Of a DNA stretch of 19,336 nucleotides, positions 9,001 to 15,000 are shown one piece after another. This DNA comes from Bdellovibrionales bacterium. GTDB lineage: Bacteria > Bdellovibrionota > Bdellovibrionia > Bdellovibrionales > UBA840. The stretch is taken from positions 1-19,336 of the forward strand of contig JBBKWS010000145.1 of NCBI GenBank assembly GCA_037969075.1. Reading direction: 5' to 3'. The position numbers are program-made. Numbering within the stretch: the stretch's first letter is position 1; each line of letters starts with the position of its first letter.

Positions 9001-12000
9001 ATCTTTTTGATTTCTGCCCTCCAAGTAGCTTAAAATTTCAGCTTTCGTATCTACAGATTCAATCAGATTAAAAATACGAAGACGCTCTACCCTATCCATT
9101 TCTTCAAGAAGAGCCGCTATATCAGCCGCATGTGTTTTAATTAAAATACGCTTAATATTTTTCCAGGCAGCTCTTCTATAGAGCTTACGAATACTTTCGA
9201 CTAATACCTTTGTACGTAATTCAAGCATCAATAACCTTAAAATCTTTCTTTATTTTAATATAAAATAGACAGCCAAATAAACTAAGCAAAAACTGCAATG
9301 TCTGTAATACCGTAAATATAGTCACTAGTCTAGAACTCCAGTCTTTAGGATAATCATGACTCATGAGCGCAGCACCTATCTGAACGAGGCCTAAACCACC
9401 AATAGACAGGGGAAGAGCTGCGAAAAGTAGACTTATCGGCGCGATAACAAGAGTATAATAGATGAACTTAATATCTAAAGAAGTAGATCCTATAAAGAAA
9501 ATACTAAAAAAAGTGATGTGCGCCAATACGTTGCTAATAAGCGCAAATATTACATATCGAGGCTTTTCTCTATAAGAATTTCTAACTAAGATAAGGCTAC
9601 GCAAAGACTTATATTTATCAGCAACTTTATCTGGGACTAAACAAAAGAGTACTGTTAATAGAAATGAAGCTAAAAATAGTAAAAATATGATATTGCTATA
9701 TTGAGGAAACAAACCCTCTTTAAAATAAAACAAAACACACGACACCGTACTAATAGTAACCAGCATAATTAGACCAAACACCCTATCAAATATAATCGTA
9801 AATATGCTAAGATTTCGGTTACTAGCATCTTTAAATAGGTAACCTGCTTTGACAAAATCACCACCTAGAGATCCTGGTAAAAAATATTGAAATAGGCTTC
9901 CAACCCACGAAAGCGCTAATATTTTTTTAAAAGAAACTGGCAGCACTGCTTTAGCTAAAAAAAACCACCTAAATGTCAGGGATAAAAAATTCAGAAAGAC
10001 AAATAGAAACATTAATAGATAGATAGCTATACGGCTTTCTTCATAAAAAAAACTCAAATCAAAATAGTTAAAGTGAAAAGCTGCATAAAGTAATGCGGCC
10101 GAAATTAGATATTTAGAAAATCCTAACACTATACTCATTCACTTGAACTCAACGCTGAAAAATCAGAGTATAGCCGTAAAAACTTATCCTTCACCTCTTT
10201 AATTGCAATAACATCTAAGACAATCCACTGATTTATGTTTTTCTGTGTGAACTTACCATCCACCAACCATGAATAATTAAACGGATGATCATAGATGCAT
10301 TTGCTAGTGCAAAGAATGGTACCATCAACAATTATATTTTTTAATGACTGATAAAGTGGCTCGCTGTTCTTAGATAGACAGATCACAGATCTGTCCCATA
10401 TACGATTTTTAGAATTTGAAAAATAACAGCTTATTCCTTCGATTTTACTGAGTGATTCTTCAAAATTTTCTATAGACGCCTTATCCTCGGTTAACATAGG
10501 CATCTGTAAATCATAATCAGTAGTTACAGGAGCAAGAAACAAGTCGTCAATTTTTTTTGATCTTGAACCTAATAGAATCACTGCGTAGGACTGGTGATCC
10601 CTAATTTCGATTAAATAAGGATTGGGGGAAAAGTATTGTGGCTGTAAAACATGGTTATTGTGCCTAATAATTACTGTAAAAATTTTCTTATCAGCTAATT
10701 TCTTTACCAAATCATCTACTTGGTAAATTTCACCTGTGATCGGATTGTCTTCGCTCAACACAACAAAGCAAGTTTCTTCACTTACCATAGAAATCTTTTT
10801 CTCTATGGAGTCATCACTAGAAAAATTAAAAACTTTTATACCGTCACGAGCCACACTCTCTGCCACCATAAATAAGTAAGGGCTTTGCCCCGCTACTAAA
10901 CCTAGCTGTAGCTTGTGTGGATAAACACGAAACATACCCTTTGTAACTTCAGTCAACGCGTGTGCTACTGAGGATCTCACCCGTACTGACCACTTTGAGT
11001 CTACTTGAAATAATTTTTCATAAGCCTCACTTTGAAGTGAGTTTTTTTTAAGATCTAGCACAACAGTTTTCAAGATAAAAACCCTCTAATAGCTGCTTTT
11101 GTTTCAGTTTTTAAATCCACTTTTAGCGCTCTCAATTCTTTTGCAGGAGGTATAAATGATTTTTCAAAATGTAAGCTTTTAGTAGGGCATATCTCAACAC
11201 AGATACCGCAAAACAAACACTTGTCATAAGAAATACTAAAGTTTTCAATATGTCTGACCACATCTACACCGGCTGAAGTCTTGGGTTTTTTCATTGAGTT
11301 TGAATACAACTCCCCTTTAATTTCAATAGCTTTAGTTGGGCAGGCTGTTTCACAATCGCCGCAGCCACTACACTCCTGAAATCTATTTTTAATCTCGAGA
11401 CGTGAAAAAGGATGAATGTATTTATTTACATAGGGGTACTCGAAAGTAACTGAATTATGTCTTTGATTCATTTTCATCTTTTGATACAGAAACTTTATAT
11501 AAGCTAAGAATTCTCTCACCCAATAGCTCCTTGCTCTAAACTAAGCCCTAAGCTTTCATAAGCTAAGTCTAAATCCTCGACTTCTACGCCCACCAATAAT
11601 TGTGGAACAAATGATTTTAATCTGGTGGAGACACTAGAAATAAATATTTTTTTAGACATATAGGATACATACATTGGACCACTTGGCGCTTCGATGGCAG
11701 AAATATAAAATCCATTGGGAGACTCATACACATCTGTATTATCCAACTGAAATTGGCCTGTTGGTAAATTAGTCATTAAAGTTTTAACGACAAAAACATG
11801 GTGTTTTATCTTTTCGATTGCCACGATAAACCTTGTGGCCGCATCGCTACCATGAAGGCCATTTAGATTAAACCTTCCAACTGTATCATACGCTCCATAT
11901 TTATTTGCATCTCTTACATCTATCTCGACTCCGGCAGCTATTGCAACTATTCCTCCCCAAGAGAATGTATGAATTATTTCTTTTGAAATTTTCATAACAC

Positions 12001-15000
12001 CCTCCATGCGCTCAAGCAATATGGAGTCATTGACTATTTTTTGATAGGCTATCATAAACTCAGCTTCAAAAACTTTTATCTGTGCAACTAATTTATTTTG
12101 AATGCCTATAGTTAAATCTCGCTCTACTCCATTTAACAAAATGAACTGCGGCAAAATTCTAGAGCCAAACCATTGCTCTTGCATGTCTAAGATAATTTCT
12201 TTAAGCAGAAAGAAGTTATTAGAATAAATTTTCTCTTCACATGCTTTCAACACATTGATTATGTAATTACTTAGCCAAAGTAGCTCTTGTAACTCTGCAG
12301 CCAAAGTACGTAACGCCTCACCCCTTTTAGGAGCAATATACTGCGACATCTGCGAATATACTAATGCAAGCCCCCATTCTGCTGCGATTGACTCATGTGG
12401 GTCAAACCTAGATATACGCTTTAAATTATCATAAGGTGAAGATGCCTCTAATGTTTTCCAAAGAGGGCGCCAATGCTGATCATAGGGGATCTCGACCTTC
12501 GTTACTACATTTAATTTATTTTCAAATTGAAGCATCTTGAGATACCACCATGCTGTAAATAGAATTTAAAGAAGTTAAAAAAGAATCCGAACCTACAGAC
12601 CTTACGCAGATCGGTAATTTGTAACTACTGGTAACAAAATATAAATAAAAATATCCTCCAACAGGAACTGTAAACATGGGATACGGAAATCCTGTAGAAA
12701 CATTTTCTTTTAAAAAGTTAAAAAGATCATTTTCATTCACTTCCCATAGACCATCTGACGACTCTTTGTGATCTAACTTGGGAGTACCATTTATTTTTTT
12801 TATAACATCATCCAAGTTCACGAATAGCTCCGTATATAATCTTACTCGTTTCTCTATTCTCTTTGGTTTTTTCGAGTAGGCGAATTGCCTCAATGATTGC
12901 CTCAGGGCGAGGTGGACAGCCTGGTACAAAAATATCCACAGGTAGAATATCAGTTAACTTTACCCCATCGTCACCTACATAAGGTGATTTAGAAATAGTA
13001 CAAGCGCCAACAGCAATAACAGCCTTATCACCTGATATAAGACTATAAATTTCTTTAATTTTTTCAGCGAATACCGAGTTAACCCAACCGGATACAATCA
13101 GTACGGTTGCTTCTCTTGGGTCATCAATGTCAATTGTATACCCTAGGCGCTGAAGATCATAATTAGAAGAGCATAAATTATCCACTTCAATAGAACAACA
13201 GCCTTGAGTTAAGAAATAAATAGATCTGGATTTATTGTCTAGCTTTTGTAAAAAAGATTTTAGACTTTGCTTTAGTGAAACCATACTTACATAGTCTCTA
13301 AGGGCAAAGCCTAGGTCAATTAAATACCCGCTTTATGTCTCTCTTCTTCATCGACAACTGATACAACGCCGCCTTTAAGCTGAGGACGCCTAGCAAGTTG
13401 TTTAATGTCATAAGAAAAATTAGCTCCATTTATACCTGGCATCTGCCATTCAGGGCCCATACGAATTGCGTCCACAGGACATGCTTCTTCGCAAAATCCA
13501 CAGTACACACAACGAAGTACATCGATTTCATAGGAGATCGGAAACTTTTCAACAGCCGGGTCATCACTTTCTGCGGCTTTAATTGTAATACAATCTGCAG
13601 GACAATAGGTGGCACAAAGCATACAAGCTGTGCAACGAATAGACCCGTCCTTCTTTACAGTTAATATGTGGCTGCCCTTAAAGCGTGGAGAATACTCATA
13701 CTTCTCTTCTGGGTAATTAAGAGTGATCATCTCTCTCTTTCCCACTAAATTAAGGACCATGTTTTTAAATGTAATACCTAAACCTTTTAAAATTGCCGGT
13801 AAGTACCATGAATCCCTGCCCTCTGTTCTCTTTACTATACTCATAGAGCTTCTCCTAAAACTGGAATATCTTTTCCACTTATAAGCACCATTACTTCGCT
13901 CAACGTTAAGGCTTGCGAAACTACTATGCGCATTTTTTGAATTTTTTGTGCCGTACCCTCAAAATTAACAAAGGTTCCATCTTTTTCCACAAAAGTTTTT
14001 AGAGGAATTTGATATTTAGCACCCTCATAAGATTCATTTGGATTAGATGTCAGCCAGATCACATTAGGAACTTTTTTAAAAAGCTTCGCTTTTTCAGAGA
14101 TATCTGTATAAAAACTTTGAACCTCAGGACCAGCAACCACTACAACTTGGATCTTACCACTTGCAATTCTTGATTCTAGATCCGCCCAGTCAGTCACTAG
14201 GCCATTTTTCTTTAAGATGTCCTGCAAGCCCTTAGTATTTGGATTGCGGTCTCCTCTTAAAAGTAACCCGTCAAAGTCATTCCATTTTTCGGGATTATTT
14301 TGCCAGTGATAAATCTGTGTAGAGCCAATGTCGCCCTTAAAGGCCGCAATCATCGACTCATACTCTTCATTTGTATATTGGCCAGTAGCCACTAACGCTA
14401 CTTGGTCAGCGGTAAACTTTTTCAATAACTCAGCAACTTCTTTTGCGGCAGCACCTGGTGCCAAAGACACAGCTTCGTTATTTTCAAACTTAACAGCATT
14501 TAGCAATCGCTCTGATCTATTTACATGTTTATACATATCGCGACCTTCATCGCACATCCAATAGCCATTGATATCTTTATTGTGACTTGGCTTTACACGA
14601 AAGTAGCCCTTTTCATTATAATACATTTTAGTATTACAACCAGTAGAGCATCCATTACAAACCGTTTCTTTATCTTTGAGATACCAAACCCGTTGCTGAA
14701 ACCTAAAGTCTTTAGATGTTAGAGCCCCAACTGGACATATATCAACTGTATTTACAGAGTACTTGTTATCTAAAGGCTTATCTTCAAAGGTACCAATTTC
14801 ACTATGATCGCCTCGGTTAAAAATACCAAGCTCATGAGTTTTTGAAACTTCATCCGTAAAACGTACACAACGCGAACAAAGAATACAACGCTCGGTATCC
14901 AAAACCACTTCTGGCCCAAGATCCACAACCTTACGTTTTTTAACTTTTCTCTCACCCATTTCAGGATCATAAGAGCCAAATTTCATATACTGATCTTGCA

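Follow-up and report, generated by a model that had tools for sequence, protein, structure and literature searches.

The canonical Q-module of complex I (NuoB/C/D/I, or Nqo6/5/4/9) is the closest described counterpart of the gene set considered here, whose members we mark with a prime. The four folds (that of C' by prediction) and the gene order are the same, and a tandem Cys-Cys and two CxxCxxCxxxC motifs are common to both; the canonical NuoD, however, has a His-loop, a Tyr and a DLG loop that are all missing from D', canonical NuoB is longer N-terminally than B', NuoC consists of more than the N-terminal domain to which C' corresponds, and canonical complex I has a NuoH, whereas the primed set is without a dedicated one. 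A second point of reference is the MBS/Mbx/Ehr type of complex, of which Mbx and Ehr are described in the available text of PMC4758237; here too there is a NuoB/C/D/I-type arm whose large subunit lacks a working [NiFe] or quinone site and would deliver its electrons to another acceptor, but the arm is encoded with its own NuoH-like and Mrp-type subunits, none of which adjoins the primed set. The Cys-Cys doublet present in B' is also a difference, arising, according to the same available text, only from Fpo/complex I onward. A preliminary description of the locus had likened it to the sulfane reductase MBS, which holds as an analogy only, since the top-scoring models for B', D' and I' are those of Nuo subunits, while hydrogenase large-subunit models matched none of the 16 D' family members scanned and small-subunit models gave weak matches, of 29 bits or less, to NuoB'. 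On these comparisons the primed set looks to be derived from a Nuo-type ancestor and not to be a relic of group 4 hydrogenases.

Extra NuoB/C/D/I genes beside a 14-subunit-type complex I also occur in a second, 11-subunit complex I (nuoABCDHIJKLMN; genomes G284, G303, G304 and G188 of the same order). This was rejected as a relative of the primed set, the genes forming ordinary complete operons whose subunits are 30–57% identical to the canonical ones of the window and whose NuoD has the GPxHPxxHG loop missing from D'. For the fifth gene of the locus, X312, the nearest precedent is the inactive IscS paralogue of Archaeoglobus fulgidus (4hvk, 4eb5, 4r5f; Foldseek E ~2e-11, TMq 0.70–0.72), which likewise has a desulfurase fold without the PLP lysine and keeps its loop Cys. 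The Archaeoglobus protein is longer (~370–400 aa versus 312 aa; 10–12% identity), and X312, unlike it, has no IscU gene beside it and lies in a nuo-type operon. Our literature searches turned up no description of the primed set.

Organisation of the locus and its iron–sulphur sites

The window, a stretch of 19,336 nucleotides (positions 1 to 19,336 of contig JBBKWS010000145.1) from a Bdellovibrionales bacterium of the family UBA840, carries canonical nuoB-CD-E-F-G-I (13320..19294, minus strand) as the upstream part of a gene string that continues into the primed genes (Table 1). These have the same orientation and are tightly packed behind nuoI, with a spacer of 35 nt before NuoB', and no terminator-like sites were seen on the minus strand from 19294 to 10891. 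The four primed ORFs of the preliminary description are indeed found directly 3' of nuoB-CD-E-F-G-I on that strand, and the motifs quoted for them (GCCS, GAC, GCPP, CSGCGDCETACP and CLFCGICVEICP) are present in the translations; the four-gene list was incomplete, however, a co-conserved fifth gene, X312, whose first 4 nt are shared with the end of nuoI', having been overlooked.

Table 1. Genes of the nuo string and its downstream continuation in the window
Gene	Position	Strand	Description
canonical nuoB	18743-19294	-	Pfam match
canonical nuoCD	17071-18771	-	Pfam match
canonical nuoE	16595-17062	-	Pfam match
canonical nuoF	15306-16595	-	Pfam match
short canonical nuoG	13841-15325	-	494 aa; Pfam match
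canonical nuoI	13320-13844	-	Pfam match
NuoB'	12808..13284	-	158 aa; N2-type [4Fe-4S] subunit paralogue
C'	12522..12821	-	99 aa from GTG; truncated, predicted NuoC-like N-terminal domain
NuoD'	11516..12535	-	339 aa; NuoD paralogue
NuoI'	11070..11519	-	149 aa; 2x[4Fe-4S] subunit; Fer4 families
X312	10135..11073	-	312 aa; predicted NifS/IscS (class V aminotransferase) fold without PLP lysine
LPG_synthase_TM-family membrane protein	9221..10138	-	305 aa; Pfam PF03706, 2.7e-22

NuoB' matches Pfam Oxidored_q6 (PF01058) at 5.2e-18 (65.4 bits; cut-off 27) and two NCBIfam NuoB models at 108 and 106 bits (cut-offs 116 and 142.7), and is 27% identical to the genome's own canonical NuoB; NuoI' scores 58.4 bits against NCBIfam NuoI TIGR01971 (cut-off 113) and is 22% identical to its canonical counterpart. 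The best NCBIfam matches of B', D' and I' are the NuoB, NuoD and NuoI models, with every score under its cut-off. As had been claimed, NuoB' retains the four cysteines of the N2-type cluster, including the tandem Cys-Cys: C29, C30, C95 and C123 are invariant in an alignment of 11 B' and 3 NuoB sequences, in which the N-terminus of NuoB' is ~25 residues shorter than that of NuoB. All 8 cysteines of NuoI' are invariant across 11 I' and 2 NuoI sequences, and a ~12-residue insertion separates the two cluster motifs in I'. Judged by their ligands, the three [4Fe-4S] sites, two in I' and one of N2 type in B', are intact.

The lost quinone site of D' and the small protein C'

The match of NuoD' to Pfam Complex1_49kDa (PF00346; 3.6e-24, 85.7 bits) is limited to residues 109–274, spanning profile positions 12–176 of 271, and the protein is 24% identical to the genome's own NuoCD, both as first described; its score against the NCBIfam NuoD model is 94.7 bits (cut-off 360). 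The D' family is small, 1.84 billion proteins yielding 17 representatives at E ≤ 1e-30, and NuoD models are the best match among 16 members scanned, one of which has no match of any kind. An alignment of 26 D' with 10 NuoD sequences upholds the earlier claim that D' is without quinone-contacting residues or [NiFe] cysteines: all 26 D' lack the NuoD motifs N.GP.HP..HG.LR, HR..EK and DLG..T as well as the Tyr of DR..Y; the Arg of 'DR' is retained in at least 80% of them. None of the Cys or His positions is invariant among the 26 and, as far as this alignment tells, no metal-ligand Cys or His takes the place of the lost quinone residues.

C' is likely to be the 99-aa form starting from the GTG at 12821; the open frame reaches further upstream, to a TTG at 12929 that would give 135 aa and overlaps B'. 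In 10 of the 14 set-bearing genomes B' and D' flank an ORF of 76–116 aa; C' and D' form a single fused protein in G262 and G263, while C' is missing from G001 and could not be scored in G379, where the locus is cut at contig ends. A Pfam search of C' gave no match, PF00329 included, and hhalign against NuoC gave 0.9% probability. When its AF2 model (pLDDT 85.4) was compared by VIA-align with 48,161 chains, ranks 1–12 were all NuoC-type subunits, the best being Nqo5 (5b3q_A; Z 6.0, rmsd 3.2 Å, 87 residues aligned), and MbsK (6u8y) was among the fold matches. C' as modelled resembles in fold the N-terminal domain of NuoC, and its fusion to D' in two genomes, like that of NuoC to NuoD, was also counted in favour of a NuoC-like identity.

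Distribution, selection and proposed function

Of the 384 genomes of the order, 13 have a D'-type gene, and the set is also found in one genome of a second order (G568), making 14 carriers in all. Every one of the 6 other UBA840 genomes is among the 13, and the presence of D' in these 6 had been reported before. Canonical nuoI is the gene immediately before B' in 8 of the 13 and is 1.9–4.3 kb off in 2 more. The order nuoI-B'-C'-D'-I'-X312, or a close variant, occurs at 10 loci of the order and one in another order, across which D' identity is 24–43%, and the order of the primed genes is kept down to 24–27% protein identity across the two orders. Twelve genomes of the order and one of another have intact frames, and a 13th of the order has two contig-end fragments. 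Between the congeneric genomes G383 and G382, dN/dS values were 0.021 for B', 0.017 for C', 0.036 for D' and 0.095 for X312 (for I', pN was 0.018 and pS saturated), compared with 0.008–0.021 for the canonical nuo genes; purifying selection on the set is about as strong as on the latter. A look for RNA sequencing found no run that contains this stretch of DNA.

It had been suggested that the set could be a decaying duplicate of nuoBCDI, without function. Identities of only 22–27% to the canonical subunits, the motif losses and the sub-threshold NCBIfam scores are what such decay might leave behind, but the intact frames, the invariance of every Fe-S cysteine and dN/dS values of 0.02–0.04 already contradict this reading, which is scarcely credible. 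Instead, the invariant Fe-S ligands, these dN/dS values and a gene order kept across two orders support a maintained paralogous Q-module and not a wreck.

We infer that the set is a working paralogue of the complex I Q-module, maintained by selection and acting as an electron-transfer arm in a non-quinone function, and would give this reading a probability of about 0.5. B', C', D' and I' would form a complex-I-like peripheral arm, in which electrons from a donor at I', perhaps ferredoxin, perhaps the co-encoded NuoEFG, would cross the two I' clusters, reach the cluster of B' where B' and D' meet, and exit to an acceptor other than canonically bound membrane quinone. In most carriers X312 would be a fifth subunit of the arm, which would probably be anchored by dedicated membrane proteins and not by the single NuoH, the candidates being a group of seven hydrophobic ORFs immediately 5' of nuoA.

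X312 and the membrane side

X312 lies directly 3' of I' in 10 of the 14 set-bearing genomes (the window, G568, and all but one of the 9 other nuo-linked loci); no orthologue could be placed in G379, and none adjoins the set in G001, G262 and G263, so that X312 is not obligatory. Pfam and NCBIfam searches gave no match. The top Foldseek PDB matches of its AF2 model (pLDDT 86.5, pTM 0.85) are all cysteine desulfurases, at 10–12% identity (5wt5: E 1.3e-12, TMq 0.74), and hhalign against the genome's own three desulfurases gave 94.9% probability (E 1.1e-8). In the latter alignment the lysine of the desulfurase SAHK motif falls in a deletion and Cys259 is aligned to the catalytic Cys; of 14 orthologues, 11 have Cys at this loop position, two have His and one has Asp, whereas the Archaeoglobus paralogue keeps the Cys. 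By its model, X312 is a NifS/IscS-fold protein whose PLP site is lost, and it would most likely be a structural or docking subunit, not a desulfurase.

X312 as modelled shares its fold with Fe-S biogenesis enzymes, and the set continues the string of canonical subunit genes, which also raises the idea of an assembly or maturation device, in which Q-module mimics and a NifS-like protein would serve canonical complex I by holding or loading its Fe-S clusters. The inactive IscS paralogue of Archaeoglobus fulgidus offers a precedent, since it may, according to the available text of PMC8918507, donate a Cys ligand to a cluster. Against such a device, complex I is present and the set absent in eleven other families of the order, so that the set is not needed for assembly in general (the tally of the order comprises 13 families, f1–f13, with f2, f5 and f11 also carrying the set). 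Twelve invariant Fe-S cysteines and four subunit paralogues exceed a chaperone's needs, and X312 is missing in three carriers and its Cys is not universal. A subunit paralogue does serve as an assembly factor in mitochondria, NDUFAF2 being a paralogue of subunit NDUFA12, but for the primed set this role is unlikely.

Considering the membrane side, each of the 6 genomes checked has a single NuoH. This would also suit an alternative head, B'C'D'I' replacing NuoB-CD-I on the one NuoA/H/J-N membrane arm as an isoform without the usual quinone reduction, e.g. regulated, idling or differently coupled. The location of the set within the nuo operon, behind nuoI with no terminator seen, is consistent with this, as are the N-terminal segment of NuoI', which retains the T.EYP motif of NuoI, and the two genomes (G264 and G001, both 100% complete) that carry the set with no detectable seven-ORF cluster. 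However, the ~25 N-terminal residues of NuoB and the N-terminal loop of NuoD, which in complex I structures line the NuoH interface and quinone tunnel, are lacking in B' and D', the low identity to the canonical subunits makes conserved docking surfaces doubtful, and in G262 and G263 B'-C'D'-I' is distant from any nuo genes. Such head replacement is rather improbable.

The candidate anchors of the arm, the seven hydrophobic ORFs, immediately precede nuoA in 5 of the 6 genomes inspected. They share one size pattern there, in which the sizes follow the order of NuoA/H/J/K/L/M/N. With a profile of the last one, matches at E ≤ 1e-81 were confined to 7 of 384 genomes, each of which has the set (G186 has a weak match), and besides G264 and G001 the cluster was not found in set-bearing G378 (85% complete), G262 and G263. 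By hhalign the seven families match NuoA/H/J/K/L/M/N with 2.4% probability at best, against 99.9% for a NuoL/M/N control, and show no profile similarity among themselves. In the ESM Atlas the last ORF falls beside PF00361 clusters (25 of 30 matches, score 0.91), a resemblance that we take as a lead only; the second hydrophobic protein has no look-alike there. The membrane partners earlier proposed on contig C198 are still a lead, favoured by co-occurrence in 7 genomes, which among kin is not independent evidence, and disfavoured by the hhalign result.

Were these ORFs unrelated lineage-specific genes, the set could be a soluble or peripheral NADH- or ferredoxin-dependent oxidoreductase, with NuoEFG or ferredoxin feeding B'C'D'I' and no dedicated membrane arm. 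No NuoH-like or other membrane gene was found beside the set except for a doubtful LPG_synthase_TM protein, the hydrophobic ORFs are without detectable homology to Nuo subunits and their co-occurrence could reflect shared ancestry; their position 5' of nuoA, their Nuo-like size order and, as a lead, the PF00361 resemblance speak against a soluble enzyme, which we consider quite improbable.

Membership of the LPG_synthase_TM protein in the primed module is doubtful. In the window its gene shares 4 nt with the end of X312, and the two adjoin only here and in G378; at 5 other loci unrelated genes spanning 2.3–6.8 kb lie between it and X312, or in G001 between it and I'. In the nuo-linked loci where it is found, mgtE remains its neighbour, and recO lies 3' of mgtE in all 5 loci that reach that far.

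Gene string of canonical and primed nuo genes

A single tightly packed gene string runs along the minus strand of the window; in it the canonical nuo genes are followed by a primed set of diverged Q-module paralogues, NuoB', C', NuoD' and NuoI', and a consensus scan of this strand from nuoB to the inside of X312 found no terminator-like site. The four primed genes of the preliminary description stand, and we could reproduce both the quoted Fe–S motifs and the 24% identity between NuoD' and the NuoCD of this genome. A fifth member, X312, had been overlooked; its orthologue lies straight after NuoI' in eight of the nine other nuo-linked loci of the Bdellovibrionales, and also in a locus from a second order.

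Features of the window, from the canonical nuo genes downstream
Feature	Position	Strand	Remark
nuoB	18743-19294	-	canonical, Pfam
nuoCD	17071-18771	-	canonical, Pfam
nuoE	16595-17062	-	canonical, Pfam
nuoF	15306-16595	-	canonical, Pfam
nuoG, short, 494 aa	13841-15325	-	canonical, Pfam
nuoI	13320-13844	-	canonical, Pfam
NuoB'	12808-13284	-	35-nt spacer after nuoI; Oxidored_q6
C' (small ORF)	12522-12821/12929	-	no Pfam match
NuoD'	11516-12535	-	Complex1_49kDa
NuoI'	11070-11519	-	Fer4 families
X312 (312 aa)	10135-11073	-	no Pfam match; overlaps nuoI' by 4 nt
LPG_synthase_TM protein	9221-10138	-	downstream of X312
mgtE, recO			downstream of the LPG_synthase_TM gene
693-aa protein	5236-7317	+	among the plus-strand ORFs of window 1-7317

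The NuoG of the window covers positions 1-344 of the 606 in the NCBIfam NuoG model, with just a fragment of the molybdopterin-like domain. In the nine set-bearing loci with canonical-type nuo genes containing it, NuoG has 491-530 residues, and in the divergent locus of genome G378 it has 474.

Downstream, the LPG_synthase_TM gene adjoins mgtE in all seven loci where it was found (window 7314-10138, minus strand), recO following in the five loci long enough to show it, and this block also holds together in loci that have 2.3-6.8 kb of envelope-sugar genes between it and the primed set. Where X312 and the LPG_synthase_TM gene are not adjacent in other genomes, the genes that part them are sugar and envelope genes, mostly on the opposite strand, and were placed outside the set.

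Fe–S path, quinone site and descent

NuoB' matches Oxidored_q6 (PF01058) at 65.4 bits against a gathering cut-off of 27 (E 5.2e-18). In an alignment of 11 NuoB' with three NuoB sequences the cluster N2 cysteines, C29, C30, C95 and C123, including the tandem Cys-Cys, are invariant, and the N-terminus of NuoB' is about 25 residues shorter. NuoI' has two CxxCxxCxxxC motifs, whose eight cysteines are invariant among 11 NuoI' and two NuoI sequences; in NuoI' about 12 extra residues are inserted between the two motifs. The three-cluster Fe–S path of the primed set is thus, judged by its ligands, intact. Among NCBIfam models, NuoB', NuoD' and NuoI' are nearest to NuoB, NuoD and NuoI, every score falling under the curated cut-off: NuoB' reaches 108.4 with NF005012 (cut-off 116) and 106.5 with TIGR01957 (142.7), NuoI' 58.4 bits with TIGR01971 (113.05), and NuoD' 94.7 bits with the NuoD equivalog (360).

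The match of NuoD' to Complex1_49kDa (PF00346; 85.7 bits, cut-off 24; E 3.6e-24) spans residues 109-274 and only profile positions 12-176 of 271. Three quinone-site features, the His in the GPxHPxxHG loop, the DRxxY Tyr and the DLG loop, belong to the NuoD consensus (residues present in at least 80% of 10 NuoD sequences); none of 26 NuoD' sequences has N.GP.HP..HG.LR, HR..EK, the DR..Y Tyr or DLG..T. NuoD' does keep the 'DR' Arg, together with the core motifs G.R.L, GG...D, D.R and S...P...G. The alignment has no conserved His in NuoD', no Cys is invariant or near-invariant among 24 NuoD' sequences, and the CxxC nickel-iron ligands of group 4 [NiFe] hydrogenases are absent. The claim that NuoD' has neither the quinone-contacting residues nor the [NiFe] cysteines is therefore borne out, and on these alignments the quinone site of the primed set has been lost.

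Against NCBIfam NuoD no score among the 16 NuoD' family members scanned exceeds 113 bits; these proteins match solely NuoD/FpoD/NdhH models, and no hydrogenase model matches NuoD' or any of the 16. According to PMC4758237, the Cys-Cys doublet arises from Fpo/complex I onward and is missing in hydrogenases and Mbx; NuoB' has it, as in complex I and Fpo and unlike those enzymes. Together, the scoring of NuoD' as NuoD and the doublet of NuoB' indicate, at the level of sequence, that the primed set stems from a Nuo-type ancestor. The likeness to the sulfane reductase MBS drawn in the preliminary description thus holds for MBS, MBX and Ehr as an analogy, but not as descent.

C', X312 and conservation of the set

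C' gave no match to PF00329 (Complex1_30kDa) at E<=1 in Pfam and only 0.9% probability against a NuoC alignment in hhalign. Its AF2 model (pLDDT 85.4) returned NuoC-type chains at VIA ranks 1-12 among 48,161 chains, at a modest Z of 4.5-6.0, the best being Nqo5 (Z 6.0, rmsd 3.2 A, 87 residues aligned); Foldseek found no match at E<=1e-3, about 20 of the 46 weak rows listed being NuoC-type. Despite the modest Z, the position of C' between NuoB' and NuoD' and its fusion to NuoD' in two genomes (G262 and G263) mean that C' is best read as a truncated NuoC.

The AF2 model of X312 (pLDDT 86.5, pTM 0.85) has as its top Foldseek PDB matches cysteine desulfurases throughout (NifS/IscS/NFS1), with a best E of 1.3e-12 and TMq of 0.74 at 10-12% identity. 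A profile of 13 orthologues aligned with the genome's own three desulfurases at 94.9% probability (hhalign, E 1.1e-8), while Pfam gives X312 no match and a PF00266 search of the genome misses it. X312 has a gap in the profile alignment where the desulfurases have the Schiff-base lysine of SAHK, none of 14 orthologues having a Lys in this stretch, and it has nothing that corresponds to the PLP-binding Asp and His. A desulfurase fold lacking these three residues marks X312, as modelled, as a pseudoenzyme, for which the nearest precedent is the inactive IscS paralogue of Archaeoglobus fulgidus (PMC8918507). Cys259 aligns with the catalytic loop (GSAC) cysteine of the desulfurases and might suggest a persulfide carrier; this idea is weakened by its replacement in three of 14 orthologues (Cys in 11, His in two, Asp in one).

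The NuoD' family is small. Against 1.84 billion representatives, phmmer gave 17 matches at E<=1e-30 and ranked about two dozen full-length NuoD' proteins of 328-364 residues ahead of ordinary NuoD; a word-indexed search with NuoD' returned eight clusters, two of them source-named as Bdellovibrionales and Oligoflexia MAG proteins. A NuoD'-type gene occurs in 13 of the 384 Bdellovibrionales genomes, including all six other genomes of the window's family, and none of the 44 genomes of g9, the genus with the most genomes in the sample, gave a second NuoD'-type match. Nine other double NuoD matches (G284, G303, G304, G336, G188, G010, G056, G070 and G087) proved to belong to a second complex I, as NuoD of the ordinary type, and were set aside. 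In a phylum sample of 401 genomes, where NuoD' was taken as E<=1e-75 with a 335-362-residue frame because E 1e-30 admits ordinary NuoD, matches of this grade occurred in six, all of the same class and one from another order with identical gene order.

Between two congeneric genomes dN/dS was 0.021 for NuoB', 0.017 for C', 0.036 for NuoD' and 0.095 for X312, compared with 0.008-0.021 for the nuo genes; all these values are rough, since dS is near saturation. The possibility, raised earlier, of a decaying duplicate is ruled out by this distribution and the low dN/dS, and the primed set is both linked to the nuo operon and under purifying selection. The stretch itself was found in four DNA sequencing runs from one sediment sample, possibly the one it came from, with no RNA run among the matches listed.

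Other arrangements were also seen. In G262 (L046, 8940-11027) and G263 (L045, 9586-11664) NuoB', a C'-NuoD' fusion of 421-431 residues and NuoI' stand alone, distant from any nuo genes and without X312, the G263 locus adjoining tatA/tatC-like ORFs. In G378 (L040, G378:C29, 561-3542) the genes before NuoB' encode NuoF-like (361 aa), NuoG-like and NuoI-like proteins 23%, 31% and 41% identical to those of the window, and nuoE gave no match in the interval from nuoCD to the NuoF-like gene; the N-module of this carrier may itself be diverged. A mini-cluster from another class (L069, G446:C89, 4084-5988) encodes proteins resembling NuoB (164 aa) and NuoD (340 aa, with a GPxH N-terminus kept), a 113-residue Fer4 protein and then a 635-residue protein, and is another kind of reduced Q-module, distinct from the primed set.

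Membrane side and possible function

Complexes of the MBS/MBX/Ehr type have their own NuoH-like and Mrp/antiporter-like genes alongside, whereas none of either kind lies next to the primed set, which could instead be a soluble oxidoreductase. It could also serve the canonical membrane arm as an alternative head: a single NuoH (PF00146) gene was present in each of six genomes checked, that of the window being 90% complete and the other five 97-100%. Seven hydrophobic ORFs lie directly upstream of nuoA-H-J-K-L-M-N on another contig of the same genome (C198:20856-25965; 3857-8966 of locus L008). They encode 99, 266, 115, 75, 398, 327 and 431 residues, and their order of sizes and helix counts parallels NuoA/H/J/K/L/M/N (124, 383, 176, 116, 641, 505 and 486). 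This mirror-image layout is striking but unproven.

The same pattern precedes nuoA in four of five other set-bearing genomes inspected, and a profile of the 431-residue ORF has strong matches in seven of the 384 genomes, every one a set carrier, with a weak match in one other carrier and none in five. The seven are very poorly conserved, families of the order sharing 16-24% identity in them; a single-sequence search with the 431-residue ORF reached the congeneric genome only, its relatives surfacing by profile. None of the seven has a Pfam match, their families reach at best 2.4% probability against NuoA/H/J/K/L/M/N in hhalign, and no pair among them exceeds 5%. In the ESM Atlas the 431-residue protein has Proton_antipo_M clusters as its neighbours, no more than a lead, and the 266-residue protein has no useful look-alike (score 0.77). 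The earlier proposal of these ORFs as membrane partners has the mirror arrangement in its favour and the missing profile similarity to Nuo subunits against it.

On our main reading, the primed proteins would form a complex-I-like arm, in which electrons would pass from NuoI' to the NuoB' cluster and from there to an acceptor other than quinone, with X312 as a structural or docking subunit and dedicated membrane proteins as the anchor. No acceptor-binding motif was recognised in the primed set, and the set might also be an assembly device, as previously considered. A complex prediction of NuoB', NuoD' and NuoI' with X312 as partner scored 0.00, controls being absent, so that it carries no weight either way. 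A bolder reading, tentative at a probability of roughly 0.3, is that the two nuo operons of this lineage may each hold half of an eleven-subunit 'shadow' complex I, made up of NuoB'-C'-NuoD'-NuoI' and the seven hydrophobic proteins, with X312 standing in for an input or output module; its membrane arm would have diverged beyond sequence recognition, and it would have lost quinone reduction and taken on a new redox or ion-translocating function.

No second degenerate nuoBCDI set is described in the full-text literature searched; fig. S2 of PMC4758237, on Bdellovibrio nuo clusters, was outside that search and could still show one. For Bdellovibrio-like organisms PMC13147790 gives a split of nuo into nuoAHJKLMN and a second cluster, and says no more. 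We regard the primed set as a variant form inside the complex I superfamily, its proposed function being inferred. Complex I and its relatives (Fpo, NDH-1, Mbh, Mbs, Mbx and Ehr) are the chief examples of the re-use of a redox-driven machine for different substrates, and the primed set would be a branch off a Nuo-type enzyme already reducing quinone, one that sits within the operon of its parent enzyme and would have dropped the quinone site, retained the Fe–S wire and gained a disabled cysteine-desulfurase partner. As a separate complex it would be a natural experiment on the N2 cluster and the NuoB/NuoD interface without quinone; as an assembly device, the first bacterial case of subunit paralogues serving as complex I chaperones. 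Either way, it provides a context for some 25-30 proteins annotated as 'NADH dehydrogenase subunit D' and otherwise uncharacterised.

Elsewhere, at 1919-5997 of G000:C211, the genome of the window encodes a fourth Proton_antipo_M protein, of 513 aa, and behind it lies an 846-residue ORF, a pair that we take to be reminiscent of DabB/DabA.
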